Below the pieces are notes generated by a model. That model did not search any database. It worked only from the letters and a program-made list of their open reading frames with translations, and was not told where the DNA came from. Positions 11,201-48,080 of a stretch of 64,000 bases of DNA are shown piece by piece. Each line of letters opens with the position of its first letter. The first letter of the stretch is position 1. Both the position numbers and the translations under genes were made by a program. Location: contig CAZYWG010000004.1 in the NCBI GenBank assembly GCA_964651815.1, forward strand, positions 36,977 through 100,976, in the 5' to 3' direction. This stretch comes from an uncultured Gammaproteobacteria bacterium. GTDB taxonomy: Bacteria > Patescibacteriota > Microgenomatia > Levybacterales > GWA1-39-11.

Positions 11201-12880
11201 CTAGCCACGCTGCGCAGTCGCCTCGCAGGTCTTGTTCCCAGAGCCTGAAACGGTCTTGTTAGTCGCACCGTCCCAGTTGTTGAAAACATACCCTGCGGGG
11301 ATGTCGAAATACGCACACGTTCCACCGCCATGGATCTTGACCTTGCCGTCGTCGAGCTGATCGTAACCGGTCACAGTGTTGCAACCAGTCTTGCACCAAC
11401 CCTTAACGACCTCGGGCGTAAGTCCAGAAGCGGCAGGAGCTGCGGTCTGCTGAGCGGGCGGAGCGGAACCCTGGGCCGGAGCCTGGGGCTGAGCCGTCTG
11501 CTGAGCGGGAACCGACTGCTGAGTACCGGTCATGGCTGATACCGGGCTGATAGGCATCGGAGCTGAAGCGGGAGCCGCAACACCGGAAGCCGAAGCCAAG
11601 TGACAGTCGTGGGCAGACGTGATGACCGGAGGGACAGTCCCAACAGCCACGTAGTCGCCACACCGGTACTCGTCGTCCATGCGTGCCCACTTGCCCGCCA
11701 ACCCAGGAACAAAGTCCACGGGGGCGTCGTAGAGCGTGGCTTCCGCGACACGGAATCCAGCGTTCACGTTGGCAGGACCCCAGATGCGGACTGATGACTT
11801 GCGGTTGTTGAGAGCCGCGTTGTCAAGCCACACGTCCAGGACCTTGCCGGCTGGCACGTTCATCTCGTAGCCTGGCAAAAACACGTCGTTCTGACGCATC
11901 CCAACCATCTTGTACGAGTCGTGCACGAAATCACCGTTGGCGCGCTGCAAAGGCCACCACTGCTCAGCAGGGCCTCCGATAACGTTGCCGTTGACGGTGA
12001 AGGGCGTGAACCCGGCCTGAGTCGCCTGCGCCTTGATGCAGGGGATATTGGGCGAGTTCGTCGCGCAGCTGTTGCTGTTGGCCTGCTGGTTTGCGGGCGT
12101 GGGCGAAAGCTGCGGTGCCGTCTGCGTGGGTACTACCGTGGCAGGGACCTGCGTCGCCTGAGGGGCGGGCGGGTTGCCGGCGGGTACCGTAGGCAGAGTG
12201 GCGGGCGTCGACGAGGGTGCGGGCGTGCTAGCCGGCTTGACAGGCGTAGGCGTAGGAGCCGTAACCTGACCGGGCTTAGCTTCGTCGAGAGCCGAAACGA
12301 TGTCGCGAGCCTTGACGTCAGCGTCGAGGTTCTTGATAGTCGTCACAGCTTCGTCCTGAGACAATCCACGATCGCGGGCACTGGCATAAGCGCCTGAGAT
12401 CTTCTTGGCGTCCGGGACGTCTACGTCGTGGCTCTCCAGAGCGGTCTCGGCCTTGCCGGCGTCCTTGTTGTCGGGCGCGAGGCTATGCAAAGCGCTCGTA
12501 GAGTCGTCCCGCAGATGCGAGCCGCCGCCATTGTTGTCGTTACCACCACCGTTGAAGAACGGGATGATGACAAACCAGGCGAGCACGGCCAGCACGGCGA
12601 GTCCAGCAACAGGCATCCAGTTGCGACGGAAAAAGTCCACCAGGCCGTTGCCACGAGGCGGAGCCTCCCAATCAATCTCTTCAGCGAGACCAACGGGTAC
12701 GTTCGCGTTGAGAGCGAACTGGTTCAGGTAGTTACGCAGAATCTGGCGAGCCTGAGCCGCGGTGGCGTCATCAGGTACATTCAGACCAGCGTTCGTCAGA
12801 AGGTTGATGGCTGCAATGATCCGCAGGAGGACATCCAACGGAGCCTGATCCACCAACCGGTTAAGATCGCGATAACGCAT
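11201..12880 (-). CDS. single-pass membrane protein with an anti-sigma-factor-like architecture
   Basis: A cytoplasmic N-terminus of about 90 aa precedes one TM helix (WMPVAGLAVLAVLAWFVIIPFF). A Pro/Thr/Ala-rich linker (TAPTPTPVKPASTPAPSSTPATLP...) follows, then a Cys-containing extracytoplasmic domain. The DNA is high-GC with Actinobacteria-like protein composition. An ECF sigma gene lies upstream on the same strand. Confidence 0.5.
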   Translation of the reverse strand: MRYRDLNRLVDQAPLDVLLRIIAAINLLTNAGLNVPDDATAAQARQILRNYLNQFALNANVPVGLAEEIDWEAPPRGNGLVDFFRRNWMPVAGLAVLAVLAWFVIIPFFNGGGNDNNGGGSHLRDDSTSALHSLAPDNKDAGKAETALESHDVDVPDAKKISGAYASARDRGLSQDEAVTTIKNLDADVKARDIVSALDEAKPGQVTAPTPTPVKPASTPAPSSTPATLPTVPAGNPPAPQATQVPATVVPTQTAPQLSPTPANQQANSNSCATNSPNIPCIKAQATQAGFTPFTVNGNVIGGPAEQWWPLQRANGDFVHDSYKMVGMRQNDVFLPGYEMNVPAGKVLDVWLDNAALNNRKSSVRIWGPANVNAGFRVAEATLYDAPVDFVPGLAGKWARMDDEYRCGDYVAVGTVPPVITSAHDCHLASASGVAAPASAPMPISPVSAMTGTQQSVPAQQTAQPQAPAQGSAPPAQQTAAPAASGLTPEVVKGWCKTGCNTVTGYDQLDDGKVKIHGGGTCAYFDIPAGYVFNNWDGATNKTVSGSGNKTCEATAQRG

Positions 12881-13212
12881 TGTAGCGTCCCTTCTCTACG
12901 AGCTTTCAGCTCATAGGTGTGCGGGAGGGGTTCTTCCTCTGACATTCGTCAAAGATTCCTCCTATTAACCTCATTCCGATGTTATCGGGACGGGCTCGCT
13001 GCCGATTCTACCGTTCAAGACGGAGTACTTATACGGCACGCTATTTAGCATCTAACGGTTTTGTTCATCGCATCTCCTTGATACGTGCTAGCCGTTGCGC
13101 TTGCTACCTTCCCGCGTGTGCTTACTCTGGTGCTTCTTGCTCAGCCACTTGCTGCGCTTATGCGTTCTCAGAGCATTGTCCACGTGGGCGGTCCGAGGCT
13201 TTTTGTTGGCCA

Positions 13213-13563
13213 TCAGAATCCTCCCAGGGAGTTGACTTCTACACGAACAGTGCGTTTCCGCGTGTGAATCGTGCGACCCACGAACGTGCGTCTCGAGCGT
13301 GAAGCTCCCAGAAATGCCAACTCGTCATCGTCGTCTTCGTCCTCGAAGAACAACATGTCGGGCGGGCTGCTTGCCTCAGGTTCGGCGGTGTCTTCAGAAG
13401 CTTGAGCCTCGTCATCGAGAACTCCTCCGATGCCGTTCTTGCGAAGGGCTTCGAGTGCTTCTGCTAACCTTGCCTGTTCTGCGGCGTTTCGTTTCTGGCG
13501 AACGTTCTGGTCGCGGGCGCTGCGCTTGGCCATCTTATGATTTCCCTTTGCGTTGTCGTCCAC
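13213..13563 (-). CDS. small highly charged protein (hypothetical)
   Basis: The ORF lies in the GC-rich block between the ECF sigma gene and the anti-sigma-like gene. It has a basic N-terminus (MAKRSARDQNVRQKRN) and an acidic stretch (FFEDEDDDDE). The start may be the internal Met at 13533. I recognise no family motif. Confidence 0.3.
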   Translation of the reverse strand: MDDNAKGNHKMAKRSARDQNVRQKRNAAEQARLAEALEALRKNGIGGVLDDEAQASEDTAEPEASSPPDMLFFEDEDDDDELAFLGASRSRRTFVGRTIHTRKRTVRVEVNSLGGF

Positions 13564-13752
13564 CGTGGGTGGGCATTACGCGTGGGGGCGGCGCAGACGT
13601 TCGGCGAGGCGGAGGCTTATCACTCGCTGACTGGTTTGCACCGGTCAGTTGATTAGCTTGTCGCCTGCCTTTTTTCGGTTCCTTAGACACTCTCTATCCT
13701 CCTGCGGGGCTGAAAGACTTCCAGTAGTCAATCGATGCTCCCTCGGGGGACT

Positions 13753-14298
13753 TCAGGCAAGAAGCTTGCGGAGATCCGCTAGCGTTCTGAACTGAAGCAC
13801 ACGTGTCACGGGGACAGTCATACCGAGCGCGGTAGCCGCCTCTTCGTAATCTTTGTCCTCGTAGAACCGCAACCTGACCAGCTTTCGCTTGTCACTAGGA
13901 AGCTTACCAACAGCGTCGCGAACGAGTTGCTCGTCCTCTAGCTGAAGAATAACAGCTTCAGGGTTGTGGTTCTGTTTCTCCTCCATGATGTCATCATCAA
14001 GCCGGTCGTTATCCCGCTTGCGCATGTGACTGATTGTCACGTTGTGCGCTATACGAAGTAACCAGCCTGCGAAAGCGTGACGATCCCTGCAACAGCCGAC
14101 TGCCTGCCAAGCCTTGAGAAAGGTCTCGGAGGTAAGGTCGTCTGCAACGTGGTTGTCACATACCATGAAGTAGATGTGTCGGTAGACACGCGTAGAGTAA
14201 CGACCGTAGAGTTCTCCGAACGCATCTGCGTCGCCTGCCGTAGCACGCAACACAAGATTTTGTTCTTCGTTCTCTCCGGTAAGAGCCAGAGTGGTCAT
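13753..14298 (-). CDS. ECF-type RNA polymerase sigma factor (sigma-70 regions 2 and 4)
   Basis: Region 2-like segment: FGELYGRYSTRVYRHIYFMV...SETFLKAWQAV. Region 4-like segment: KRKLVRLRFYEDKDYEEAATALGMTVPVTRVLQFRTLADLRKLL. A GAGG motif precedes the ATG. Confidence 0.85.
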   Translation of the reverse strand: MTTLALTGENEEQNLVLRATAGDADAFGELYGRYSTRVYRHIYFMVCDNHVADDLTSETFLKAWQAVGCCRDRHAFAGWLLRIAHNVTISHMRKRDNDRLDDDIMEEKQNHNPEAVILQLEDEQLVRDAVGKLPSDKRKLVRLRFYEDKDYEEAATALGMTVPVTRVLQFRTLADLRKLLA

Positions 14299-14645
14299 GC
14301 CACCGCCTCGCTTTCGCGAGAGTGTACCTGACTACTGGCTCGTAAGAATTCGGGCACTTCGTCCAGACTGCTTTTCGGCAGAGGCGTCTTGAAGACGTTG
14401 CCATTGGCGGTCGGGATGAGGAGAGAGTCGCGGGACTGTTCAAGCGGGCAGAGTGCCAACTGTAAGACAGCGTCCGTGAAGCTCCTCAAGTGCTCCGAGT
14501 CAGACCTGATGTCTGCCACACGATACTCGAACTTAATCGGGTATGTATCAAGTAAACTCAGGATGAGCTTCTTGACCCCGTGGGCAATCAGTTCAGGCGG
14601 CAACTCGCAAGCGAGAGCCTTGGGGGCGGGGTTGTTGCGGGGCAT
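14295..14645 (-). CDS. hypothetical protein translationally coupled to the ECF sigma gene
   Basis: Its stop overlaps the sigma start by 4 bp (ATGA). It is high-GC. No motif recognised. Confidence 0.4.
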   Translation of the reverse strand: MPRNNPAPKALACELPPELIAHGVKKLILSLLDTYPIKFEYRVADIRSDSEHLRSFTDAVLQLALCPLEQSRDSLLIPTANGNVFKTPLPKSSLDEVPEFLRASSQVHSRESEAVA

Positions 14646-16142: not shown

Positions 16143-16689
16143 AAATTCAAACGATTTGTGAATTGTAGCATAACAAAAAGCATTTGTCAAGTGCTATAGG
16201 ACGTGATGTGTAGTTAATAGTTTATAGTGAATAGCTAATAGGTGAAAATTAATAAGATGGGGCCTTGATATATATAATAGGTAGAGTGGGTTGGTAATAA
16301 AGAGCAACTGTATTATAGGACTCTTTGTAAGAGTTGGGTAAAAAGAGACGGGTAGCGGGACTTAGCAGAAAGCTGTCTACGAGTTATATAAACCTCGGGC
16401 CTGTCCTCCTCCGGTCAATAAATTCATCCGCCTTAGTAAAAACTTCGGCGAGATAGATCGTAAACAGCTTCCTGCTCACTACGCTTCTACGTGGTAAAAA
16501 TGTAAAACGGGGGGCCCTGAAGGGATATACTGGTGTGAACCAGGGCAGAGAAGCAGTGCTATCTCAACCATCCCCCCAGGGCCTTGTCCCCATGACAAAG
16601 TCAATGAATTACGTTCATCACGCGTGTGGGTTGTACCTCATCGGTACTTTATGAAGGATCCCACAAGAACCCCGATTTAAGGTTTTCTC

Positions 16690-17694
16690 CTATCCGTTTT
16701 TGAGGCAGGGTATGCCCCACAGGCTTTCGCCGGCTGCAATCCACGTTGCCTTGCTAGGGTTGTCAGTCCTGCCTACGGTTCCACAAGTCCATTCGCCATG
16801 ATAGGCGTTTAGCCACGTGTCAAAGTAGACAGTTGCCTCAGCGAAGTTCATCTTGAAGGCCGGGCCGACCACAGTGATGCTAGGAGCATGCGTGACAGTA
16901 TCAGCAGGAAGGTTGAGAAACTCGTTGCTTTTAGAGCTGAGTTTGCATCCCTGCGTCAAGAAACCAAACTGGTCTCGAGCCTGCTTCCACGAGTCCGACG
17001 GGCCCCCTATCACAGCTGACATGGTCTGACAGAAATAGTCGCCATTGGCATACTTGTGTCCGTTGGCATCTACGGTTCCGTCAGAGTTGAATATGGGGTG
17101 TAGGACCTGACCACTGCCTCCCTTGATGGGGGGTAGAGGCTGGGAGTCCTTTTGTGTTTTCCCAACAGTGCCCGCAGGTGTACCAGCAGGAAGCCTGTTG
17201 AGATAGAACATGCCCCATTCAACATCAGGTAACGACAGAGTGTTGCCGCTCTCGACCTCTCCGGTGACGCGCTTGCCATGCGTGTCGACGGTGTACGACA
17301 GGACATAGATGCGTCCGTCGTTGTTGTAGCTGAAGTTCGCGGGAATTTCTAGTGTCACAGTCTCGCCGTAGTCCATTGTAGCCTGGTTGGCCGCGTCATG
17401 GAAACGAGAATCAGTGTTGCACGTTGCACACCAGCTTTTGACCGTGAGGCCAAAGAGGCTGGGGGCGCACTCCTGCTTACCGCACATAGGAAACGTGGCC
17501 GAAGCCGCGCTAGCGGAAGTGGGAGTGTTTGCCGGGCTGTTGGCAGTGACTTTCGTGTTGGTTGGCTTTGTGTTGTTGATGGGCGCACTCGTCTCGTTGT
17601 CGGTTGTCGTTGACTTGGACGTGTGCGAACCGCCGCAGGCCACTGCGAGAAGCAGCAGAGCCCCGAGAGCCAGAGAACCAATTCGAGTTGTCAT
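16690..17694 (-). CDS. lipoprotein (hypothetical), high-GC
   Basis: Signal peptide with a lipobox (LLLAVAC|GG). It is Thr/Asn/Pro-rich after the Cys and has multiple Cys residues. A strong SD (taGGAGGacac) lies upstream of the ATG. Confidence 0.6.
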   Translation of the reverse strand: MTTRIGSLALGALLLLAVACGGSHTSKSTTTDNETSAPINNTKPTNTKVTANSPANTPTSASAASATFPMCGKQECAPSLFGLTVKSWCATCNTDSRFHDAANQATMDYGETVTLEIPANFSYNNDGRIYVLSYTVDTHGKRVTGEVESGNTLSLPDVEWGMFYLNRLPAGTPAGTVGKTQKDSQPLPPIKGGSGQVLHPIFNSDGTVDANGHKYANGDYFCQTMSAVIGGPSDSWKQARDQFGFLTQGCKLSSKSNEFLNLPADTVTHAPSITVVGPAFKMNFAEATVYFDTWLNAYHGEWTCGTVGRTDNPSKATWIAAGESLWGIPCLKNG

Positions 17695-17710
17695 TTCGTG
17701 TCCTCCTAGA

Positions 17711-17965
17711 CTAACGTGAATTCGTGCTTGCCGATTTGTAAATCACCTCGTAGTGAGGTGTGTGGGTAGGCTCCTTGTGTGGGAGTATGTTCTCCAGGTT
17801 GATGAACCCGATGACCATTACCACTGTGAGCATCCCAGCTACTGTCCATACGCCTGCGCGCAGAACTTTGTCTTCATTAGCCGTTTTCTGGCGCTGGTGC
17901 TCGATCATCATGACCAAGACACAAACCAGAGCCAAGCCGATCCAAACCGCGGGGTGTTCGAACAT
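17711..17965 (-). CDS. small two-TM membrane protein (hypothetical), high-GC
   Basis: Two hydrophobic helices (VWIGLALVCVLVMMI and VWTVAGMLTVVMVIGFI). An SD (aaaGGAGAcac) lies 8 nt upstream. Confidence 0.4.
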   Translation of the reverse strand: MFEHPAVWIGLALVCVLVMMIEHQRQKTANEDKVLRAGVWTVAGMLTVVMVIGFINLENILPHKEPTHTPHYEVIYKSASTNSR

Positions 17966-18170
17966 TTGTGCGTGTCTCCTTTAAGACTACGAATGTGTCT
18001 GTCTCAACGAGTGTTGAGCGTAGACTGTGCCTGCCGATGTGTTTTTAGCGGGGTTTATGTCAGATTTTTGATTCGATCAACTCCTTATGCTATCCGCTAT
18101 AACTTCTCCATACCCAAAGTGGGTACATGGCTAACTTCTCATGAAGCGCAATCTGAATGTTAAATTATAC

Positions 18171-24890: not shown

Positions 24891-25406
24891 TGGTAAAACT
24901 TTACAAGGATTTTAATTGTTTGTCAACCCCTTTAAAATAAAAAGCCAGACATCATGATTTTGATCAAAACATTTTGTTTAGCTTGATTAAAGGCTCTAAT
25001 TTAATTCGTCCTTAAATTTTAAAATTCAAAAAAGCTCTTATCAAAACTTACCCAAAATGATTTATCCCATCTTCCGAAAATCCTGTTCGTAAGATAAGAG
25101 TTTGAAAAAACGCGATAGTGAAACTTCTTCATTAACCTGATTATAAATTAGTATGTGAAGGATAAATTTAAAAATAGTCTCTTGTGGAACGTTTTATAAA
25201 TTATATAGATGGTCTCGATATTCCAATAGTCGCTATATATATGTAGGCCAGGCATCGCCGGTTAACAAATTGTACAAATTTGAGCGCTGCACAAAGGGCC
25301 GTAATCCTGAAAAAAGTTTTTCAGGAACGAGCCCTTAGGCACGAATGGTTTGTTGAGTGGAAAAAATGCCTTGCACGTCACAGCTTTTTTATGCTAGCAT
25401 AAAGTT

Positions 25407-28400
25407 ATGGCTGCCCAACCATCAAAATCTGGAATTAAGAAGTTAGAATTAAGAATTAAGAAATCTCTCGCACGCGCTAACAAATATTCCAAATCAAGTG
25501 GGTTTACATTAATTGAGCTTGTTGTTGTAATTGCAATAATTGGAGCACTTTCAACAGGATTATATTCGGCCGTTACTTCACCCAAAGTTAAACAACGTGC
25601 GCAAGATGCGGTACGTTTGCGAGATATAAACCAAATAAAAACAGCCGTTGAATTATACTACCAAGACCATAATTGTTATCCGGCTGCAAGTGACAATGCT
25701 TTTGCAAACTCTCTGACTAATACTGGGACTAAAGCGTGGGTTGAAGGAAGTACAAAATATATGAGCATCGTCCCGCTTGATCCAACTGATAACCCATATA
25801 TTTATAAAACCGATTCGTCAAGCTGTCCGCAATATATGACGCTTTTTGCCAAATTATCTCAGCCCGCAGCCAACTTTACCGCATGCAACATTCCTTCCTA
25901 CACCAAGACAAATGCTACTTGTATACCGAGTACGGCAACTGCACCCCTTGATACAACCTGGGGTTGTGTTTCATCCGGAAGCATTGCATGTGGAGCAGGT
26001 CCAACGCCAACGCCATTTATCTGTTCAGGCGATTCAGATTGTACAGGAGGAAAAGTATGTGTTAACGGTTCATGTGTCCAACCAGGTGCGCCACCACCAA
26101 CCAGCAACAGTTCTGTATTTATTTCTCAAGGATCACCTCCGGCATTAATGAATCTAGGGGCGACCGCAAATATTTCTTTCACATATAAAAATAATGGTGC
26201 AACAACTTGGTCACCCGCTGGCATTTATGAGCTTGGTTCTCAAAATCCGCAAGACAATACAACATGGGGAAATAGCAGAGTCCCTATGACAGCAGGATCT
26301 AGCATTATTCCCGGAAAGAGTTACACATTTTATGCCACCATAACAGCGCCTTTAGTTGGGGGTATTTATAATTACCAGTGGCAAATGTTGCAAAGCAAAA
26401 TTACTATTCCTTCAACTGGCCTTGTATCATATTGGAAAATGGATGAGACAACAGGTACTGCCGTTGCAGATTCAAAAGGGACAAGCACGGGGACTGCAAC
26501 CGGGACAACAATTGTTCCGGGAATATTTAACAATGCGAGGTCATTTAATGGAACAAGTGATTATATAAGTACTAACTATTCTAGCAACTTCGATGTAGCT
26601 CCATCTGGGCTAAGTGTAGGCATGTGGATAAAGCCTACTACTACACTCCAAGCAGGACTTCCCGGAGGGGATCCGTACAAGGTTTTTGCGAGTTCGTATG
26701 ATTGTTCGGTTAATAAGGGGTGGAATGTGGCATATGATGGGACGTCAGGGCAATTATATGTGGCTTTGGGAAATGGGACAACAGGCGCAGCAATTGTTAG
26801 AAGTACTGTTCAAACATTATCAGCCGGCAGTTGGTATCATGTAGTTTTTATTGCTTATCCAAATTCAACTTCAAGTAAAATATATCTAAATGGTGTAGAT
26901 GTAACCGGTACAACTTCTTCGTTTGGATACTCTCCACCTACGGGTTCTATGACAATAGGTAGACAAACAACGAATACCTGCACTTCAAATTACCGCTATG
27001 TAAATGCAACTCTTGACGATATCCAAATTTATAATCGCGCGTTGATTCAAACTGAGATATCGGGATTATATACATCTACTCCATTTGGGGATAAAACTAC
27101 CAATACAACAGTCCTTGTTGTGCCTAATGATCTGGTTGTAGATGCGGATCAGGACGGATATTATACATCTAGCCCGGCACCTGCAGCGTATCCTGTAATT
27201 GCTGCGCAGGTTGTTAATGGAAGGACGTATTACAAAACTGCTACATCTGGGTACCAATATGTTTCCGCTTCAGCAACAACTACTCTCGGCGGAAGTGACT
27301 GTAATGATGGGAGTGCCAATATTTTCCAAAACGTTGCAAACATAGCAACTGATGCTGACTTAGACGGTTATTATACCGGTGCGCCTTCAACACAATGCGT
27401 TGGAGCAACTTACGCAACGGAAGTATCTAGTGGACAGGTGGGGCATTGGGCGATGAATGAAAATTCAGGTAGTTCTGTGGCTGATTCATCATCCGGTAAT
27501 AATAATAGTGGGAATACTTGGGGAGCGCCAATCAGTGGGCTTCTAGCTTGGTGGAAAATGGATGAAGGGGCTAATAATAATGCATTTGATTCAAGTGGTA
27601 ACAATAACACGGCAACTTTTACAAATACTTCTTGGACAGGAGGAAAATTAAGTAGTGCGGAAAGTTTTAATGGCAGTAATGCAAACGGTTCGTCCGGGAG
27701 CATTGCTGGAATAGCAGGCGATCACGCATGGACTATTTCAACCTGGGTGAATACAACAGCGAACCCTAATTTTGCCTGGGGTACTTTGCTGGAGGTGGGA
27801 AATGCTACATGTGACAAAAACCCGGTCCTTTTAAGAAATCCGAGCCAACAATACATAGTAGGCTTCAGAAACGGAACTCAAATTTCTACAACCGGCTTGT
27901 CCATTGGTACATGGGGGCATTTAACAGCTGTTTACACGGGAAGTCTTGGTACTTTAAGTTTGTATTTTAACGGGCAGCTTGTTGCAGGCCCTACACCAGT
28001 CGCTGCAGCAGGCAACGGAGACGGTGGGAAAGTAAATTTTGGGAATGATGCGTGTGGTATGGGCCATTATTTCAATGGTAAGCTTGATGATGTCCATATC
28101 TACAACCGAGCCCTTACGTCTACAGAAGTTGGTAATCTGTATAGCAATGCAGGCGCGGGTGGACCAACAAGGTCTATTTCGGGTATCGGTTTGAATGGGT
28201 CCGGACAATACGTTCAAATTGATAATCCTAGTTCTGGATCTCTAAATCCATCAAGCGCAACAATCACCGGCTGGTTTCAGGCAAGCAATTTAGCCAAGCC
28301 GTCTGGCTGGCAGACAATATTTTTTAAAGGCAATTACGATTGCACGACGGGTTGTGAAGATAGACAGTACGCATTATTTCTTAATAATAACGGAAGTTTA

Positions 28401-30983
28401 ACATTTTCATCCACTTCAGTAAACAATATTGGGTCAACACAGTCCGCATGCTCTACGGCTGCGGGATTAATAAGCCCTGGTAAATGGTACCATGTAGCTG
28501 CTGGAATAAATAGCGCGGCGTCAAATATGTATATATATGTTAACGGGTTTTTAGCAGGAGGGGGTTGCCCATATAATACTTCCGGGATTCGGACAACAAC
28601 GGGTCCATTTTTGATTGGAGCGAATACAACATGGGATTCATCTTTAGGACTAAACGGTTCAGTTGATGAATTCAGAATTTACAACCGTTCCATTTCCGCG
28701 TCTGAAATTTCCCAGACTCATCAGTATGGTAATTATTATATGGATGCAAGCGGTAACTATACACAAATTTTGGCTTCAAAAGCGTCAGGCGGAAGTGACT
28801 GTAATGACGCTTCGCCCGGAAACTATATAAGCTTGACTGGGTATGCAGATGCGGATGGGGACGGGCACTCGGTTAATACTCCAACAGTGTTTTGTGGAGG
28901 GCCTAATTTACCAGCGGGTTACCTGACTACTCCCGGTGGCGACTGTAATGACTTTAATGCAAATGTTTTTCAAAACCTGGCGAGTGGAGTAACAGATAGT
29001 GACCATGACGGATATTACGCGGGGGGTGCAGCATCACCTGATTGTGTGGGTGATGCAGTCGCTGCTTGGGTTGGTAGCGGACAAGTAGGATTTTGGAATA
29101 TGGATTATAACGGGTCCGAGCCTGATTTTTCCCAAACTTACGGACATACTTATATAGCTAATACCGGTTCTTTACAGGGTTATGCTCTTCAGGGGACAGG
29201 GCCATACGGAGATCAACCCACTTACTTTAATGGAACTAACGGTTATATGTCTGTACCAGACTCACAAGACATGAGACTTGGCACATATACGGTTTCTGTA
29301 TGGTTATATATGCCGGTCCAGAATGAATATTTTAAGGGGGTTGTTGGAAAACCCGGGAGAAATTACAATATGTGGGTTGGGAATGCAAACAACGCTGATG
29401 GTACAGGTGCAGCGTTTGTCCACCACAGATTTTATGACACAGTTAATGGGGGTAATGACGGGTGCCCAAATACCGGATATGTTGTTCAATTTAATACATG
29501 GAATCATATAGTTATTACAAATGACGGAGTAACTTGTAAAACTTATGTCATGGTTTCGGGTCCTTCATATTTACCTGTTGTTTCCGGAAGTGTAGCAGGT
29601 TCTCTTGTTACTACTACAGGGCCTACCTATTTTGCAACAAATCTTGATTCGGGTCCGGTAGGTAATTTTCTTAACGGTTATCTCGATGATGTCCAAATTT
29701 GGAATAGAGCGCTAACAGGGGGGGAAATTTATAATCTAAGGTATAACAACTTGCCTTATTATGCATATTATAAGGATGTTTCAGGAAATTATTCACAGCT
29801 TTCATCAACGGACGCACTTGGCGGTGGGGATCCGAATGATGCAAACGTAGCGGTTTGGAAAACTGCCGCAACTTACTATGACAATGACCATGATTCGTTT
29901 GGTCAGAACACTTCTGCAGGTAATCAGTGGGTGGGTTCAACTGCTACAGTTGGATATTCTCTAGATAATACCGATTGTAATGACGGAAATGTCTCTCTTT
30001 TCAGATACCTGACTGGGTATCAGGATTCTGACAATGATGGTTATACAACAGGAGGCGCGCAAAACATTTGCTCTGGAAATTCACTGCCTGCAGGCTGGCG
30101 GGCCGCGCCGAATGGCAATGATTGTAATGATGGGACTGCGGCGCTTTACCAATGGCTAACAGGCTATCAGGATTCGGATATGGACGGATACACAACTGGT
30201 GGAGCGCAAAATATATGCTCCGGAGCTACTCTTCCGTCAGGCTGGCGGGCCGCGCCAACTGCAAATGACTGCGCTGATAATTATGCCTTTATATATCAAT
30301 TGGTCTCCGGTGTATTTTGGTACGATTACGATCATGATTTGTATACTACAGGAGGGAGTGGAACCATATGCGTAGGGCCCGCTGCCATAATTAATACCAG
30401 ATGGGGACAAGCCTGGTACTATATGGATTACTTAGGACAATATTCTATTCCAACTGTAAGCGCGGGAACAGACTGCAATGACGGTAATGCATCTTACTAC
30501 CAATGGCTTTTAAGTTACCAAGATTCAGACGCAGACGGTTATGGGAATCCTTATACAGGCCAATGGCTTTGTTCCGATTCTACTTATTTCCCGGGTTGGG
30601 TTTCAAACGCGCAGGATTGTTATGACGCCAATTGGTACGCAAAGCCCGCGTCACCATATTGGTTTTCGTCTCCAAGACAGGACGGAAGTTATGACTGGAA
30701 TTGTGACGGCGGTTATAGCTACTATTATTACGATTATTATCTTGCTTACTACACAGTTAATATCTATTCTGACGGGTATTCATGTTCTAGTGGCCAAGGT
30801 TTAGCTTGTTATTCAACATACTATCCGGCTTGCGGGGCTTATGTAAATAATGCAAATGGCGCCGGCGGTTGTGCTGGTTATGCCCAGTATCAGTGGTGCG
30901 GCGGAGGTTGTAGCGGATCAAATTATTATTGCAGTTGTCTTTACTCATGTGGTACTTATCCTGCAACTCAGCTTTGTCAGTAG
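25407..30983 (+). CDS. giant type IV pilin-like protein with four LamG-like jelly-roll domains and Cys-rich MopE-like repeats
   Basis: Class III (prepilin) signal peptide with a GFTLIELVVVIAIIGALS N-methylation motif. Four LamG_3-like signatures: LDDIQIYNRALIQTEISGLY, LDDVHIYNRALTSTEVGNLY, VDEFRIYNRSISASEISQTH, LDDVQIWNRALTGGEIYNLRYN. There are many repeats of DCNDG...(D/S)D.DGYYTGG..C.G. The C-terminus is extremely Tyr/Cys-rich. Confidence 0.8.
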   Translation: MAAQPSKSGIKKLELRIKKSLARANKYSKSSGFTLIELVVVIAIIGALSTGLYSAVTSPKVKQRAQDAVRLRDINQIKTAVELYYQDHNCYPAASDNAFANSLTNTGTKAWVEGSTKYMSIVPLDPTDNPYIYKTDSSSCPQYMTLFAKLSQPAANFTACNIPSYTKTNATCIPSTATAPLDTTWGCVSSGSIACGAGPTPTPFICSGDSDCTGGKVCVNGSCVQPGAPPPTSNSSVFISQGSPPALMNLGATANISFTYKNNGATTWSPAGIYELGSQNPQDNTTWGNSRVPMTAGSSIIPGKSYTFYATITAPLVGGIYNYQWQMLQSKITIPSTGLVSYWKMDETTGTAVADSKGTSTGTATGTTIVPGIFNNARSFNGTSDYISTNYSSNFDVAPSGLSVGMWIKPTTTLQAGLPGGDPYKVFASSYDCSVNKGWNVAYDGTSGQLYVALGNGTTGAAIVRSTVQTLSAGSWYHVVFIAYPNSTSSKIYLNGVDVTGTTSSFGYSPPTGSMTIGRQTTNTCTSNYRYVNATLDDIQIYNRALIQTEISGLYTSTPFGDKTTNTTVLVVPNDLVVDADQDGYYTSSPAPAAYPVIAAQVVNGRTYYKTATSGYQYVSASATTTLGGSDCNDGSANIFQNVANIATDADLDGYYTGAPSTQCVGATYATEVSSGQVGHWAMNENSGSSVADSSSGNNNSGNTWGAPISGLLAWWKMDEGANNNAFDSSGNNNTATFTNTSWTGGKLSSAESFNGSNANGSSGSIAGIAGDHAWTISTWVNTTANPNFAWGTLLEVGNATCDKNPVLLRNPSQQYIVGFRNGTQISTTGLSIGTWGHLTAVYTGSLGTLSLYFNGQLVAGPTPVAAAGNGDGGKVNFGNDACGMGHYFNGKLDDVHIYNRALTSTEVGNLYSNAGAGGPTRSISGIGLNGSGQYVQIDNPSSGSLNPSSATITGWFQASNLAKPSGWQTIFFKGNYDCTTGCEDRQYALFLNNNGSLTFSSTSVNNIGSTQSACSTAAGLISPGKWYHVAAGINSAASNMYIYVNGFLAGGGCPYNTSGIRTTTGPFLIGANTTWDSSLGLNGSVDEFRIYNRSISASEISQTHQYGNYYMDASGNYTQILASKASGGSDCNDASPGNYISLTGYADADGDGHSVNTPTVFCGGPNLPAGYLTTPGGDCNDFNANVFQNLASGVTDSDHDGYYAGGAASPDCVGDAVAAWVGSGQVGFWNMDYNGSEPDFSQTYGHTYIANTGSLQGYALQGTGPYGDQPTYFNGTNGYMSVPDSQDMRLGTYTVSVWLYMPVQNEYFKGVVGKPGRNYNMWVGNANNADGTGAAFVHHRFYDTVNGGNDGCPNTGYVVQFNTWNHIVITNDGVTCKTYVMVSGPSYLPVVSGSVAGSLVTTTGPTYFATNLDSGPVGNFLNGYLDDVQIWNRALTGGEIYNLRYNNLPYYAYYKDVSGNYSQLSSTDALGGGDPNDANVAVWKTAATYYDNDHDSFGQNTSAGNQWVGSTATVGYSLDNTDCNDGNVSLFRYLTGYQDSDNDGYTTGGAQNICSGNSLPAGWRAAPNGNDCNDGTAALYQWLTGYQDSDMDGYTTGGAQNICSGATLPSGWRAAPTANDCADNYAFIYQLVSGVFWYDYDHDLYTTGGSGTICVGPAAIINTRWGQAWYYMDYLGQYSIPTVSAGTDCNDGNASYYQWLLSYQDSDADGYGNPYTGQWLCSDSTYFPGWVSNAQDCYDANWYAKPASPYWFSSPRQDGSYDWNCDGGYSYYYYDYYLAYYTVNIYSDGYSCSSGQGLACYSTYYPACGAYVNNANGAGGCAGYAQYQWCGGGCSGSNYYCSCLYSCGTYPATQLCQ

Positions 30984-35316: not shown

Positions 35317-35982
35317 TTACTTTCTTATTGTATCTGTAGGTTTTGGTGGGGGAGGCGGTACTTTTATGGAAGAGGAACGGGAAGCCTGTGGTAATTCGGG
35401 GCTTGGAAGTGCTTTAATTTTATCAAGCTCAGATTTATTTATGGGATTACCTTTAAGAATCAAATAGGTAAGTTCTTTCATGCTTGAAATTTCCGGTGGC
35501 AAAGCCTCAAGTTTATTATTTGACATGTCAAGAAGCTGGAGCTTCTTGAGTTTTGAAATCGTAGTGGGCAAAGAAGAAATTTTGTTGCCTGATAGATTAA
35601 TTCCTATTAGGTTTTGCAATGAAAGAAGTTCTTCAGGGAAGTGCGTGAACTTATTATTGCTCAAGTCTATTTGAGTAAGCTTTGAGAGTTTTGATATTCC
35701 GGAGGGAAATGTGGATAGATTTTTGTATGATAAATCCAAGGCGCAAGCTTGTTTTACATGAGCTAATGCCGTTTCCAGGTTCGTGAATCTTGCACACTCA
35801 ACTTTGGAGTTTAAAGTGGAACCGGTATTGGAAATTGTTTCCTTTGAGGATTGATTTTGCGAGTTATTTAGCCTTAGAAACATTAAAACCCCGAGTGCTG
35901 CAATAACGACTAATGAAGTGAAACCAAATACAAGGGTTTTTACTCTTATTTTTGCAATTTTTGATATCATATTTCGGGTCAT
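35317..35982 (-). CDS. membrane-anchored leucine-rich repeat (LRR) protein
   Basis: An N-terminal TM helix followed by LRRs: LDLSYKNLSTFPSGISKLSKLTQIDLSNNKFTHFPEELLSLQNLIGINLSGNKISSLP...LDMSNNKLEALP. The tail is Pro-rich (VPPPPPKP). Confidence 0.7.
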   Translation of the reverse strand: MTRNMISKIAKIRVKTLVFGFTSLVVIAALGVLMFLRLNNSQNQSSKETISNTGSTLNSKVECARFTNLETALAHVKQACALDLSYKNLSTFPSGISKLSKLTQIDLSNNKFTHFPEELLSLQNLIGINLSGNKISSLPTTISKLKKLQLLDMSNNKLEALPPEISSMKELTYLILKGNPINKSELDKIKALPSPELPQASRSSSIKVPPPPPKPTDTIRK

Positions 35983-36053
35983 ATATGTATTCTAAATATA
36001 TCTTGGGCCAAATGTATTTTAAAGTCAAGAAGATTTCTCAAAATTTAATAACA

Positions 36054-36719
36054 CTATTTTAGCGAAGAGGTAGGGCTCGCAGGTTTATAATCTAAAGGTA
36101 GTAATTGATACACTGCGTGTACTCTGGATTTATCAGCCTTGTCTATATCATTTCCAATCAGATTGAGTGATGGAATTGAGTTAAGATATTTTGAGTCTTC
36201 AGGTAATTTAGTAATTTTATTGTTTGATAAATCAAGAACCTGAAGGCGTTTCAGATTAGAAATACCTAACGGGATCTCTTTTATTTGGTTGTTTGCAAGA
36301 TCTATTTCTACGATACTCCGAAGCGACAAAAGTTCTTCCGGAAAAACAGTAAATTTATTTTTGTTAAGAATTATTGTATTAAGGTGGGTTAAACTGGTAA
36401 TTCCGGGAGGCAGAGTTTTAAGATTTTTTCTAGATAGGTCAAGTATGCATGCCTGATCGATATATTTTAGAGCATAATTTAAGTCCGTGAATTTCGCGCA
36501 AGTAACTTTTGGATTTAGAGTTGGTTCAGCTACAGACTGAGATGTTTTGATAGATCCGGGAACAGATGGATTCTTAAAAAATGATTTAATCTGGTTAAAA
36601 AACAAAATACCACCCACAAGAGCAATGATTATAGCCATAAGCCCTATGACTGTAAATGTTTGGATTGGAACCGCACCTTTCTGACTTTCTGTTTTAGACA
36701 TAATTTTATATTCGTACAA
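36054..36719 (-). CDS. membrane-anchored LRR protein, paralog of the adjacent gene
   Basis: Same architecture and identical length (221 aa). LRRs: LDLSRKNLKTLPPGITSLTHLNTIILNKNKFTVFPEELLSLRSIVEIDLANNQIKEIP...LDLSNNKITKLP. Confidence 0.7.
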   Translation of the reverse strand: MYEYKIMSKTESQKGAVPIQTFTVIGLMAIIIALVGGILFFNQIKSFFKNPSVPGSIKTSQSVAEPTLNPKVTCAKFTDLNYALKYIDQACILDLSRKNLKTLPPGITSLTHLNTIILNKNKFTVFPEELLSLRSIVEIDLANNQIKEIPLGISNLKRLQVLDLSNNKITKLPEDSKYLNSIPSLNLIGNDIDKADKSRVHAVYQLLPLDYKPASPTSSLK

Positions 36720-36773: not shown

Positions 36774-39700
36774 TTAATTAACTATTATCCAATTAAACTT
36801 TATATCTTGCGTTGCAGGCCTATCAATCCCAACTGTAAAAGAGAGCCCCGCCTCTTGGCGAAGAAGATATAATACCTCATTGTTGCTACTTCCGGTGGGA
36901 GTAATGTAAATCAAAGATTTATCAGTGACCTGGGAATCATAAATAGTCAGTTCTCCAGAATATTGTTTTATCGCCGCCGTGCCTGCAGACCCGGTTGCTA
37001 CAACTTCAGTATCTGAGATTGCGTAGGCCGGCGCGGCAAATGAAAGGTTCAATTTATTAAACGTTCCGGATCCAGAGGCTACAACGTTTCCGATGCTGTT
37101 TATTGCTAAAATGGCCGCATCAGACGAATTTTTTATTAAAAGGTCTGAATCGGGTAGGGGAGAGATAATATTTGTCCGGATCCTTCCTTTAACGCTTAAG
37201 TCACCCGCAATTTCTGCATTTCCGGCAACTTTAAGCGTTCCGTCAGTCTCAATTCTAACGGCACCCGCAAGGAAAGAAACGGCTCCCTGCCTTAGAGGTT
37301 CAATTTCAAGATCTTGCCCAAGCGTATCAATTGAATTGGATCCAATCATAAGTGTTGTCCCAACCCAAATCCCGTCGTTTGCTGTCACTTGACCAAAAGT
37401 TGCAGGGCCAAGACTAATTAGTCCTTGACGGAATGTGCCAAAATCTGCGTTGAAGTTTGAAACGTCAACGTAATCTATGTTTGTGATTTTTGCCTGGCCA
37501 GTCATTATATTTGCCATATCGGTAAATCCGCCTGAAGTTTGGGCAACCGTTTCATGATAGTTAGAAACATATTGACCAGAAGGCGTTGAAGTATTGGTGC
37601 TTCCCAAAATATTTTGAATACGCGAATCAAGTCCTTGAATAGAATTTGCCTGGATATTATTAGCGTAAAGCGTACCTGAGATTGTAGCGTAGGACGCATT
37701 TAAGTTATCAGCTGTGAGATTTCCTGAGAGTGTTGCATTTCGAGCCGCTAAATCACCCTGCGTGTAGACATTACCTTTGTTATCAATTGAGGCTACAGTT
37801 GCAGACTCTGTTGCATTTCTTGAGCTATGAATTTCGAGTTCCGAATTATTTAGTCCGAGAGAAATGTTTGAATCAGCAGCAAGTGGGCTTATTACATTGG
37901 TTTCAACTTGATTGGCACTTGCAAGAGGAGAAACAATATTTGAATTAGGAATTATGTCGGCGAGAGAGCCTGTTGAACTAATTGTTTGTTTTACCACTTG
38001 CTGAATGTAGTCGGAGAGAGATTGCCCGGCAATTGTTACAGAGTTAGTTGCAACTGCCAATGAATTGGTAGTTAAGCTCCCGGCGACATTCACGCTTTGG
38101 GCAATGACATTCACAAAGTTTTGAGTTGTCGCAGCGGCCGCAGCGTAAAGTTCTTGAATTGCCTTAACAACCTTCCATATTGATGGTTCTTCAACCATTA
38201 AGTAACCGTTTGATCCGGTATGAACCATTTCTGGGAATACATTCTGTACTTCTTGAGCAATAACACCTGTTAATCTATTGCCCGAGGTTTTTACAGTATA
38301 TTCTCTGATTCTAAGTTTGGATAGATCGGATAATGTGTCACCTGAATCAACTATATCTGTTTTAAGCCGTTCATCAGAAGAACATGTTACTGTTTCAGAC
38401 CCTGCTTGTGGGTTGTGGTCACAAGTTCCATCAGCATCCTGAAGCCTAAGCACATTTGTATTGGCGGCTGAGTTTATTTGGAGAGCTACTTGAGGGTCGT
38501 TTGTACCTATCCCCACATTCCCACCGGCGCCATTAACGCTTTGGATTATGAGATTACCAGATATCGAAGCAGTTACGGGTCCGGAGGAATTTACATTGAA
38601 AATTGCAAATTTGGCAGAAGACGTGGATTGGCCACCAATTACAAAGTCGGCTGTCGTATTGTTGGGGTAGAGCAGGCCGTTTGTTTGATTCCAGAATAAA
38701 TCATTTGATGAAACAGCTCCCGTGCATGTTCCCCACGAAGGATTTGATGCTCCGGAGATTAAACAAAGACCTGAGGTAGAAGTTGTTGCTTGACCAAGGT
38801 CGCCCGTGGCATAGCTTCCATAAAGCGCGCCGTTTTGGCCTGTGAAGTTTGGGAGATTAATTCCCTGTGCCGCTCGCCCGATTTTTATGGTTGTTGCATT
38901 AGATGAGCCTATTGAAAGAGTACCCGTTGAAATAGTATCAATAGATACGCCCGGTGAAAGAGAAAGGTCCCCGTTATTCTGAATCAAGAATCTTAGTGTA
39001 CCACTTGATGACGCGGCAAAAATGTCCCCGCCTGAAGTATGGTTATCAACTATAAAAGCCGCAGCGGCAGAAGTTGTTGCAATTACTGCAAATTGATCGT
39101 CAACCTCAACGGCCCCTGGGATTGACCCGGCGTTTGTTGAGTTAATAATTGGTTTTTGAAGGTCAATTCTACCAAGCCCGTCAGGCGCCACTTGTATATC
39201 TGCGTTAGTGGAGGCGTTTGTTGTCAAAATTAAGGGTTGCCCCGAAATTTTAAATTGTCCGCCCGTTGCCTGAAAGGTTGGAGAAGCCTTACCGCCTATT
39301 GTTAAATTACCGGATGAGTCAAGCGCTAAGACTACATTTGAAGTTCCGGCCGTGGTGTCTGTAATTGGACGCATCCCTTGAAGTGACTCCGAATTAGCAG
39401 CATATGCTACCGTTGCGAGTTGCTGGCGAGGAGCAAGCTCATCAGTATCTTCAACGGTTATTCCAAGAAATAGCCTAGAATTATCAGTAAACAAGTTATT
39501 TGGAATAGTGCAAGGAGTTTTCTGGACAGCGAGTGGTTGATTCAAGCAAGGCGCTCCGTCTCCTAATAACTCGTTAAAAACCCCATTTTCATCAGGAATC
39601 ACTTGGTCAACCTCTTGCCACACAAGATGTCCTGCGCCGGTTGCTGTTGTGTCGTTATAAATTGTAAACCGAATGTTTGTTGGCTGAGTTATGGCCGCAT

Positions 39701-40907
39701 CGTTTTTGTCAGTAAGCCTACCCTGAAATGAGAGTATTCTAGGTGGAGCAACAGAAGAAGCCAGCGCCTTTTGGGTTTGTGGCGCAAAAAGGCCTGTATA
39801 TATAATGTAGCCCAGGACCGAAGCATATATCATAAGAACTGCAACATGTAAATAATGAGCGACTGTATACTTATGATAGCTTAAGTACCATTTAGGTCGA
39901 GAATAACTTGCGTGATGTAATATTTGTTTGTATAGCGGAAGTCCTACAAGTGATACTGTTTGAGGCGAATATTGTTGCTTTGAATAGCTTTTAACATAGG
40001 TGGCCAATACTTTCCCTGACTTCCCACTATTTGAAGAAATTTTGTCATTCAGCTTTGATAAGTTAATCCCGTTTGCAATTTTTGTGGCTACTTTTTCTTC
40101 TAAAATTAAGTATGGTAGAAAAAGTTTCTGCAAGAGTCTGAGCGGCGGGAAAGGAGAAAATTTAATGAGATCCTCAACTGGTGTTTCTACAGATTTGATT
40201 TCTTCAAGATTTACTCCAGAATTAGCCTCAGGATTTTTGATTTCTTCAAGCGTAGGATTCACAAAGCTAGGAATATCACGTAGCGGTTCCGCCTCCTGGG
40301 AGTGAGTTGTACCTCCGCTTACAAAAGAAATGTAGCGTCTAATAGAGGAGAGCTTGCGATTGATGCTACTAGGTGATAAGCCAAGAATTGATGCTAACCT
40401 TTCTTTATATATTTCAATTGTTTGAGGATCGAGGACAGGATTATTATCTTTTCCTTTTGGGGCGCTTTCAGAAAGCCATGTTGTAAAAGCATTTATATCA
40501 ACCATGTAGTTTTTCATGGTTAAAGCAGATGCACCACTTTGATATAGATGGTTCTTAAAGTTTTTTAAGTCCCAGGGATCACTCGAAATTAATTCCCGGA
40601 CTTTGGTTTTAGATATTTCATCAAAAGGATCTGCGTCAATTAAGCTCTTGTCCTTTAAGTACTTTGTAAATTTTCTTAAAGTAGATATGTATCTTTCTGT
40701 TGACCTAGGCGAATTAGAATTGCTTTGATTTTGGAAGAGAGTAATAACCTCATCATTTATATCCTCCGCAGAAAACTCATTTTCATAGTAAGTGCTGTAC
40801 CAATTTAAAAACTTATTGATGTCTGACACATAATTCTTAGCAGTAACAGCAGATACTCGTTTCTGCGAAATTAAGAAGGATTTAAAATCATTGATAAGAT
40901 CATTCAT
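36774..40907 (-). CDS. giant membrane-anchored fibre-like surface protein with two N-terminal recombinase core-binding-like domains and a tail-fibre intramolecular-chaperone-like domain
   Basis: Residues 1-40 and ~110-150 match the phage-integrase N-terminal SAM-like pattern (LINDFKSFLISQKRVSAVTAKNYVSDINKFLNWY; LKNFKNHLYQSGASALTMKNYMVDINAFTTWL). A single TM helix lies at ~aa 345-370. About 1000 aa of Ser/Thr/Gly/Asn-rich sequence follows. A segment (SDERLKTDIV...LRIREYTVKT...GVIAQEVQNVFPEMV...AIQEL) matches the peptidase S74 / endosialidase-chaperone signature. Confidence 0.6.
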   Translation of the reverse strand: MNDLINDFKSFLISQKRVSAVTAKNYVSDINKFLNWYSTYYENEFSAEDINDEVITLFQNQSNSNSPRSTERYISTLRKFTKYLKDKSLIDADPFDEISKTKVRELISSDPWDLKNFKNHLYQSGASALTMKNYMVDINAFTTWLSESAPKGKDNNPVLDPQTIEIYKERLASILGLSPSSINRKLSSIRRYISFVSGGTTHSQEAEPLRDIPSFVNPTLEEIKNPEANSGVNLEEIKSVETPVEDLIKFSPFPPLRLLQKLFLPYLILEEKVATKIANGINLSKLNDKISSNSGKSGKVLATYVKSYSKQQYSPQTVSLVGLPLYKQILHHASYSRPKWYLSYHKYTVAHYLHVAVLMIYASVLGYIIYTGLFAPQTQKALASSVAPPRILSFQGRLTDKNDAAITQPTNIRFTIYNDTTATGAGHLVWQEVDQVIPDENGVFNELLGDGAPCLNQPLAVQKTPCTIPNNLFTDNSRLFLGITVEDTDELAPRQQLATVAYAANSESLQGMRPITDTTAGTSNVVLALDSSGNLTIGGKASPTFQATGGQFKISGQPLILTTNASTNADIQVAPDGLGRIDLQKPIINSTNAGSIPGAVEVDDQFAVIATTSAAAAFIVDNHTSGGDIFAASSSGTLRFLIQNNGDLSLSPGVSIDTISTGTLSIGSSNATTIKIGRAAQGINLPNFTGQNGALYGSYATGDLGQATTSTSGLCLISGASNPSWGTCTGAVSSNDLFWNQTNGLLYPNNTTADFVIGGQSTSSAKFAIFNVNSSGPVTASISGNLIIQSVNGAGGNVGIGTNDPQVALQINSAANTNVLRLQDADGTCDHNPQAGSETVTCSSDERLKTDIVDSGDTLSDLSKLRIREYTVKTSGNRLTGVIAQEVQNVFPEMVHTGSNGYLMVEEPSIWKVVKAIQELYAAAAATTQNFVNVIAQSVNVAGSLTTNSLAVATNSVTIAGQSLSDYIQQVVKQTISSTGSLADIIPNSNIVSPLASANQVETNVISPLAADSNISLGLNNSELEIHSSRNATESATVASIDNKGNVYTQGDLAARNATLSGNLTADNLNASYATISGTLYANNIQANSIQGLDSRIQNILGSTNTSTPSGQYVSNYHETVAQTSGGFTDMANIMTGQAKITNIDYVDVSNFNADFGTFRQGLISLGPATFGQVTANDGIWVGTTLMIGSNSIDTLGQDLEIEPLRQGAVSFLAGAVRIETDGTLKVAGNAEIAGDLSVKGRIRTNIISPLPDSDLLIKNSSDAAILAINSIGNVVASGSGTFNKLNLSFAAPAYAISDTEVVATGSAGTAAIKQYSGELTIYDSQVTDKSLIYITPTGSSNNEVLYLLRQEAGLSFTVGIDRPATQDIKFNWIIVN

Positions 40908-48045: not shown

Positions 48046-48080
48046 GTCTAGCTCGCGCTTTCCTATGTTGAAATGCAAAA

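Follow-up and report, generated by a model that had tools for sequence, protein, structure and literature searches.

What does a type IV prepilin leader do at the head of a protein of 1858 amino acids (aa)? This question is raised by a single open reading frame (ORF) in a 64-kb stretch of the bacterial contig CAZYWG010000004.1, the whole of which was analysed and is called the window here. The ORF (25407-30983, + strand) opens with an ATG, runs without interruption and encodes a product of ~190 kDa, referred to below as the giant, in which ~1,650 residues of passenger follow a pilin head. Judged from its modules, the giant is probably a pilus-displayed adhesin, that is, a modular type IV pilin, and it would most likely be a minor pilin or one of low abundance. 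The bacterium itself is low in GC and probably belongs to the Patescibacteria, or Candidate Phyla Radiation (CPR). The original prediction had spoken of a pilin adhesin of unusual size, and this holds for the pilin-type head, the lectin-like modules and the size itself; the architecture as such is not new, as pilins with four PF13385 domains are already listed in Dataset S1 of Raynaud et al. 2021. The modules of the giant are as follows (window coordinates, all on the + strand):

25407..25502, +: leader peptide, residues 1-32, long and basic, ending in Gly at position -1 (read from the sequence)
25503..26006, +: type IV pilin or GspG-like module, residues 33-200, with F+1, E+5, an alpha-1 helix, a beta-sheet and six Cys (N_methyl 33.4 bits, T2SSG 28.9 bits)
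26007..26126, +: small four-Cys knot CSGDSDCTGGKVCVNGSC between Pro-rich linkers, residues 201-240 (sub-threshold DUF7107 and Dickkopf_N matches only)
26127..26411, +: candidate immunoglobulin (Ig)-like, NBR1-type domain, residues ~241-335 (PF16158, 21 bits, sub-threshold)
26547..27062, +: Laminin_G_3 domain 1, residues 381-552 (74 bits, E 1.9e-20)
27138..27410, +: repeat cluster A, a half unit (578) and one unit (631-668) (unit profile)
27711..28130, +: Laminin_G_3 domain 2, residues 769-908 (80.5 bits)
28194..28712, +: Laminin_G_3 domain 3, residues 930-1102 (91 bits)
28797..29057, +: repeat cluster B, two units (1131-1172 and 1179-1217) (unit profile, E 4e-15 and 1e-9)
29229..29729, +: Laminin_G_3 domain 4, residues 1275-1441 (62.1 bits)
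29829..30584, +: repeat cluster C, five units (1475, degenerate, then 1523, 1572, 1621 and 1689) (unit profile, E down to 3e-25)
30615..30983, +: C-terminal Cys-rich domain, residues 1737-1858, with 12 Cys and 25 Tyr and ending ...LCQ, plus the stop codon (own profile)

A pilin module at the N-terminus

The N-terminus reads as a class III (prepilin) signal, in which the predicted cleavage site lies between ...KSSG and FTLIELVVVIAIIG, that is, between G32 and F33, with Glu37 at position +5; the stretch that follows the site (F33TLIE37LVVVIAIIGAL) is hydrophobic, as belongs to this class of signal. The prepilin leader with GFTLIELVV that had been read from the letters was confirmed by profile searches, in which N_methyl (PF07963; 29.9 bits for the whole protein and 33.4 bits for the first 200 aa, cut-off 21.2), TIGR02532 (25.7 bits in the NCBIfam scan, cut-off 16.3) and T2SSG (PF08334; 23.4 bits for the whole protein and 28.9 bits for the first 200 aa, cut-off 21) all exceeded their cut-offs. 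The equivalog model for GspG, the major pseudopilin of the type II secretion system, was tried and rejected (TIGR01710, 47.6 bits against a cut-off of 88.85), with only the domain-level T2SSG model being passed. The residues at the predicted cleavage site are also conserved: in an alignment of 27 related pilins, G32, F33, T34, L35, I36 and E37 are invariant or nearly so, and the motifs RD…I…A.ELYY.D…YP and P.DP are common to the aligned sequences.

The nearest relatives of residues 1-227 are small pilins, some of them named Patescibacteria or Falkowbacteria, and the closest comparison was given by the 241-aa pilin P0062, with 44% identity over 75% of this query. Across the proteins related to the giant, the names encountered were Falkowbacteria, Colwellbacteria, Dojkabacteria, Gribaldobacteria and "Patescibacteria group". 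The same pilin-module clade occurs with other passengers, and includes P0062, P0063, a 321-aa pilin with Big_13 from the related locus L015 (described below), P0239 (741 aa; pilin, LamG, DUF1554 and a Cys-rich tail) and P0300 (1005 aa; pilin, fn3 and a Cys-rich tail). Leader length among the relatives ranges from 8 to ~67 aa, the leaders of the pilins P0064 and P0071 being ~67 aa long. A 7-bp tandem repeat (GAATTAA x4.4) lies within the leader-coding part of the giant gene, at window positions 25432-25462 (IKKLELRIKK), and hints at slippage-driven variation of leader length.

These observations were further strengthened by structure prediction and by remote profile matching. In the AlphaFold2 (AF2) model of residues 1-345, a helix spans residues 35-88 and strands lie between 111 and 191; over residues 31-150, block means of the predicted local distance difference test (pLDDT) lie for the most part at 85-94, apart from 67-75 around residues 91-110, and beyond residue 150 they drop to 52-80. 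A profile of the 27-pilin alignment matched solved chains of GspG (5wda, 1.3e-18), geopilin, PilE and PilA (1e-18 to 1e-9). With the signal, the GspG-like match and the predicted long helix followed by beta strands in agreement, the pilin module is established at the level of sequence and prediction.

Pilus tip or cell envelope

Beyond the pilin module, the four-Cys knot sits in a region for which relatives have Pro/Thr-rich linkers at the equivalent place, and it is followed by the candidate Ig-like domain. Here PF16158 remains sub-threshold on residues ~241-335 (21 bits against a 28-bit cut-off), residues ~240-340 share 39-47% identity with the repeated PF16158 domains of P0002-P0006 (E down to 5e-192), and AF2 predicts beta strands at low confidence. 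The four LamG domains expected from the original prediction were recovered in full. Each passes the 27.6-bit gathering cut-off of Laminin_G_3 (PF13385; a profile of 151 positions in the concanavalin A (ConA)-like lectin/glucanase superfamily), domains 1-4 covering profile positions 1-151, 14-150, 1-151 and 1-150, with a whole-protein total of 258.8 bits over four stretches in the Pfam scan, and the IYNRAL-type signatures fall at residues 541, 898, 1091 and 1431. The order of modules is LamG1, cluster A, LamG2-LamG3, cluster B, LamG4, cluster C and tail. The fimbrial family NF052521 (TafC), which belongs to the haloarchaeal Tat-fimbriae (PMC11821415), was rejected as an alternative assignment, the score being 84.7 bits against a cut-off of 410, the four matching stretches being the LamG domains and no twin-arginine signal being found in the giant.

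For a pilus-displayed adhesin of this build, a plausible course can be outlined. A prepilin peptidase would cut after Gly32, and the hydrophobic alpha-1 helix would dock the protein in the pilus assembly platform. A passenger of ~1,650 residues would be too large to pack along the filament body, so the giant would sit at the pilus tip, pili growing from tip to base. In a monoderm cell, the type assumed for CPR bacteria, its size would not be constrained by a secretin. At the tip, the LamG domains, perhaps together with the terminal Cys-rich knob, could bind glycans or other molecules on the surface of a host or partner cell, while the repeats, as disulfide-containing and calcium-stiffened units, would act as spacers between the modules. 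The gene itself may have been built by module shuffling at a variable surface-protein locus.

Such a locus is illustrated by L015 (Logan SRR23592405, 5106-15960), which is syntenic with the surroundings of the giant gene, as seen in its flanking M23/LysM peptidase (73% identical), tetratricopeptide repeat (TPR) protein (61%) and fibre protein (51%). The genes of interest at L015 are as follows:

L015: 321-aa pilin with Big_13
L015: 1078-aa secreted protein with F5/8-type C, 49-aa repeats and a Cys-rich tail
L015: leucine-rich repeat (LRR) protein
L015: 241-aa pilin P0062
L015, opposite strand: 1745-aa DUF2341/LamG array with a plain membrane anchor

The pilin head of the giant resembles the two small pilins of L015, its LamG domains resemble the LamG array, and its cassette of repeats and tail resembles the 1078-aa protein, at 24-62% identity. 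These identities are low, and the giant is therefore not a recent fusion of those particular genes. We infer from the comparison a variable surface-protein locus with module shuffling, at which a pilin head would in the present case have replaced the usual anchor of a LamG array.

Several observations weigh against the giant being a pilus subunit. A pilin N-terminus was found in none of 60 other large LamG-array homologues, which have ordinary membrane anchors or signal peptides instead. The pilin-assembly genes that the original prediction had proposed to look for were not found nearby, with no PilB, PilC, PilD or PilM/N/O in the 64-kb window, nor does any frame of the window hold a second pilin motif. 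The leader, at 32 aa, greatly exceeds the usual length of type IVa leaders. Foldseek lends the pilin fold little support, as the match to EpsG has a probability of 0.99 but an E-value of 0.09 and a template modelling (TM) score of 0.51; this search was probably hampered by the multi-domain model.

Part of this evidence favours a different placement, in which the giant would be an envelope-anchored adhesin and not a pilus subunit, with the class III signal and helix serving only PilD-type processing and membrane retention and with the passenger projecting from the cell surface. The giant would then be similar to archaeal sugar-binding proteins that have class III signals, or its pilin head would just take the place of the ordinary N-terminal anchors seen in other LamG-array proteins. 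The plain anchors and signal peptides of all 60 LamG-array homologues fit this placement, as do the LamG array and the repeat-plus-tail protein of L015, neither of which is a pilin, the lack of pilus genes in the window, and a passenger about four times larger than that of any modular pilin studied by experiment (PilB and PilC, at ~50 kDa). Against it stands the conservation of the whole globular pilin module (T2SSG match, Cys pattern and the identity to P0062), which would be needless for a mere anchor, and the smaller members of the pilin clade look like ordinary modular pilins. The isolation of the gene can also be set in context, as in Falkowbacteria (GCA_026396835.1; locus L017, 8950-12137) three tandem genes for pilin plus Laminin_G_3 proteins (354, 352 and 363 aa) are found at a distance from any pilus genes, with yceG on one side and rplJ on the other; a position away from pilus genes is therefore normal for the pilin-plus-LamG class. 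Taken together, we regard an envelope anchor as possible but unlikely, and a modular pilin displayed on a pilus remains our preferred reading of the giant.

Terminal domain, repeats and gene integrity

The last 122 aa contain 12 Cys and 25 Tyr, in keeping with the Tyr/Cys-rich terminus of ~120 aa that had been pointed out earlier, and homologues of residues 1441-1858 likewise show 49-aa units that lead into a Cys-rich tail. A tail profile (A3; 15 tails, 112 positions) was searched against 1.84 billion representative proteins (50%-identity clusters) and returned 2,726 representative clusters at E<=1e-3, of which 193 also reach E<=1e-10; the giant has a score of 63.9 bits (E 1.7e-12, residues 1737-1858), but its own tail was among the seed sequences. 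The domain ends no more than 5 residues from the C-terminus in 139 of the 154 proteins examined, and a Cys stands among the last three residues in 134 of 141 tail-domain proteins. Its head is conserved as DCYDxNxxAxPGQTxxFxxxRGDGSFDYNCDG (in short, DCYDxNxxAxPGQT…RGDGSFDYNCDG), most positions being 86-100% conserved, and in the rest of the domain conservation extends to four or five Cys and a CG pair. No Pfam or NCBIfam match was obtained for the domain, which is without an existing family model.

The carriers of this tail have ordinary signal or lipoprotein N-termini, membrane anchors or pilin heads. Bacterial pilin heads are found with it in P0162 (546 aa), P0239 (with N_methyl and T2SSG before LamG, DUF1554 and the tail), P0243, P0260 and P0300, and N-termini that resemble the archaeal class III type, as judged by eye or by one regular expression, are found in P0181, P0193, P0219, P0247 and P0269. 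The AF2 modelling of segments that had been suggested as a check was informative for the pilin head, with its helix and strands, but not for the tail, where block-mean pLDDT is ~27-35. At a separate locus (L016), a VKOR gene for disulfide-bond formation (5645-6076) lies ~4 kb from the gene for P0162, a pilin with Cys-rich repeats and the tail, and may be relevant to the oxidative folding of Cys-rich surface proteins.

A bolder view of these data would take the repeat-plus-tail cassette, and chiefly the ~110-aa terminal domain, as an undescribed and widespread extracellular end-piece that forms the actual receptor-binding knob. We hold this to be doubtful. If true, a knob at the outer end of a LamG stalk, which would be stiffened by calcium, tens of nm long and placed on a pilus tip, would provide an ultrasmall cell with a long-reach "fishing line" for host capture. 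For the C-terminal domain family, which is well defined but unannotated, and for the 49-aa repeat, a family model and a structure would be worth having.

The repeats turned out to be fewer than first counted. Whereas about 20 had been claimed, a search with a profile of 16 units taken from homologues located eight full units of ~49 aa (DCND…Dx[DN]xDG…C) and one half unit in the giant, so that the earlier figure was a roughly two-fold over-count, probably reached by counting the DCND and DxDxDGY half-motifs separately (DCND and DxDxDG[YH] occur nine times each). The units start at residues 631, 1131, 1179, 1475, 1523, 1572, 1621 and 1689 and the half unit at 578; the unit at 1475 is degenerate and without both Cys. 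Their consensus is DCNDxxxxxWQxLTGYxDADGDGYTTGxxQxVCSGxSLPxGY, and the acidic loop fits Dx[DN]xDG in 7 of 9 cases. As Dx[DN]xDG recurs among calcium-binding loops (PMC3123361), the repeats would be expected to bind calcium through it, an assignment that is better supported than copper. AF2 predicts beta hairpins for the units at 1523 and 1572 (about residues 1529-1619, pLDDT 80-88), which are the only two repeats modelled with confidence, and a Foldseek search of the repeat/tail model against the PDB gave no match. No DNA-level tandem repeats were found under the protein repeats, the 7-bp microrepeat in the leader being the only one.

Copper was at issue through PF11617 (Cu-binding_MopE), to which the repeats had been likened. 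As an account of the whole protein, this would make the giant a MopE-like surface protein for scavenging copper or other metals, with its repeats as PF11617 members, which we consider very improbable. The repeats do open with DCND as PF11617 does, and in more remote cassette relatives, such as P0157 and P0159, canonical PF11617 motifs co-occur with 49-aa repeats. Nevertheless, PF11617 membership was rejected: the whole protein gives no match at E<=1, the best score among isolated repeats is 12.8 bits against a cut-off of 27, and at E<=10 nothing was matched in two further repeat segments or in the tail. In the giant and its close relatives, the matches (12.8-14.4 bits) cover only positions 1-10 of the 30 in the profile, and the resemblance is thus confined to the DC[ND]D start, the PGxxExC…DxDCDG half of PF11617 being replaced in the giant by …GYxDxDxDGYxxGxxxxC. 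The above-threshold scores of P0157 and P0159 stem from canonical motif sites (e.g., 602-629) and not from typical 49-aa units. His/Met-rich sites are absent, and the conserved acidic loop is of the classic calcium type, which leaves the copper reading unsupported.

Finally, a chimeric ORF, in which misassembly or sequencing error had joined a small pilin gene to a LamG-array gene, is scarcely credible, because although the modules sit in separate genes at L015 and no full-length homologue was found among 5.8 billion proteins or in the GTDB representative genomes, the identical 1858-aa sequence is present in both NCBI and Logan (taken here as separate, independent assemblies), GC content at third codon positions (GC3) is even along the gene (0.23-0.37 over all modules) and close to that of the window's housekeeping genes (0.32-0.37, with 0.35-0.37 for LeuRS, Rho and MreB), the junction of pilin and passenger is a Pro-rich linker as is typical of modular pilins, the pilin and LamG genes of L015 are convergent such that simple read-through cannot create the fusion, and smaller proteins with pilin, LamG and tail are known elsewhere (P0239).

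The ATG at 25407 is the sole canonical start (ATG/GTG/TTG) 5' of the pilin GFTLIE motif, and no paralogue of the giant was found within the window. A consensus scan upstream of the gene gave no sigma-70-like promoter on the + strand, and a terminator scan downstream found none. The 516-bp divergent intergenic region upstream of the gene holds a perfect hairpin with a 9-bp stem, CCTGAAAAA-AG-TTTTTCAGG, at window positions 25306-25325.

The gene is flanked by Rho, an M23/LysM peptidase, a TPR protein, three ORFs without a Pfam match, two LRR proteins and a 1377-aa fibre-like protein, and farther in the window lie LeuRS, ComEA, ComEC, a two-component system and MreB; no tRNA or Rfam match was found in the window. 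The LRR proteins are two tandem genes for 221-aa products (35317-36719, - strand) with 37% identity to the LRR protein of L015, and look like a conserved companion of the surface-protein island. The 1377-aa ORF (36774-40907, - strand) has a Phage_int_SAM_1 domain at its N-terminus, without a catalytic integrase domain being detected, and also contains a Peptidase_S74 endosialidase-chaperone domain; it is the C-terminal part of this protein that shares 51% identity with the fibre-like protein at the equivalent position in L015. LeuRS is followed immediately downstream by genes for DNA uptake, ComEA (SLBB and HHH_3) and ComEC (Competence domain), at 47335-49070 and ~17 kb from the pilin gene, with no ComG or Pil machinery nearby. 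Elsewhere, two sharply bounded GC-rich islands at 11000-14500 (55-65% GC) and 16500-18000 (52-55%) stand out from the rest of the window (~37% GC) and look like a recent horizontal acquisition or a chimeric stretch; the first of them encodes a 559-aa Pro/Ala/Thr-rich protein without a Pfam match (11201-12880, - strand, GC3 0.70) and an extracytoplasmic function (ECF) sigma factor (13753-14298, - strand).

Comparison with known modular pilins

How the giant relates to systems already described can be judged against the definition of a modular pilin as a protein with an N-terminal IPR012902 motif and at least one domain that is not specific to pilus biology (PMC8179133). With its N_methyl motif and four PF13385 domains, the giant falls within this definition. 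Raynaud et al. 2021 counted 1,219 modular pilins in InterPro, many of those catalogued being from CPR phyla (PMC8179133), and the commonest architecture among them is IPR012902-PF13385, with 229 proteins; two PF13385 domains are present in nine catalogued pilins and four in four (PMC8179133 Dataset S1). The giant shares with this class the class III signal and pilin carrier, the linker and the grafted non-pilus domains. It differs in size, as the "most extreme case" by domain count in that survey has 860 aa (PMC8179133) and the giant, at 1858 aa, is more than twice as long, and in the addition of the candidate Ig-like domain, eight 49-aa units with Cys and Dx[DN]xDG, and the unannotated Cys-rich terminal domain.

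The closest characterised analogues are the adhesive modular or minor pilins of Streptococcus sanguinis and TM7x, and the comparison with adhesive minor pilins that had been drawn at the outset is thereby upheld. In S. sanguinis, PilC joins a pilin to an Ig-like fold and a ConA-like lectin, binds glycans and has been modelled at the pilus tip with PilA (PMC9934059). The order of modules (pilin, Ig-like, ConA/LamG lectin) is the same as predicted for the giant; however, PilC is a protein of 52.8 kDa with one lectin module, whereas the giant has four as well as the repeats and the tail, and the pilin module is GspG-like in the giant and of a truncated type in PilC. No sequence similarity of the giant to the solved S. 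sanguinis PilC or to other lectin pilins was detected. In TM7x (Saccharibacteria), the minor pilins PilX1 and PilX2 carry lectin-like accessory domains, that of PilX1 being a beta-jelly-roll which resembles L-type lectins, and deletion of pilX2 halves host binding (PMC11623550). These are likened to the giant by design, from their descriptions, as minor pilins of CPR bacteria with large C-terminal lectin-like domains; they differ in having a single accessory domain and in being encoded in pilus loci, while the giant is far larger and stands alone among genes for surface proteins. Experimental support for an adhesive or lectin function of such grafts comes from PilB and PilC of S. sanguinis, both of which have been modelled at the tip, and from PilX2 of TM7x (PMC8179133, PMC9934059, PMC11623550).

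The passenger has its own parallels in the LamG/DUF2341 surface proteins of Patescibacteria (P0031 and the 1745-aa protein of L015), which share with the giant the arrays of Laminin_G_3 domains, a W-K-M/F-D-E start and an IYNRAL end, and local identities of 24-43%, but have ordinary anchors or signal peptides in place of pilin heads and are without the repeat-plus-tail cassette. The comparison with L015 suggests that adhesins of this kind arise when modules are shuffled between surface-protein genes that lie close together. Little is understood of how CPR/Patescibacteria recognise their hosts, and lectin-type minor pilins are among the present candidates for this role; in this setting, the giant would highlight how far the grafting of modules onto a pilin can reach, as it unites four lectin-like domains with spacers and a terminal knob in a protein of ~190 kDa. 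Neither the tail family nor the 49-aa repeat alters the general picture of type IV pili. Overall, on the evidence of its domains, the giant is an unusually large member of the catalogued class of modular pilins and not a new kind of system.

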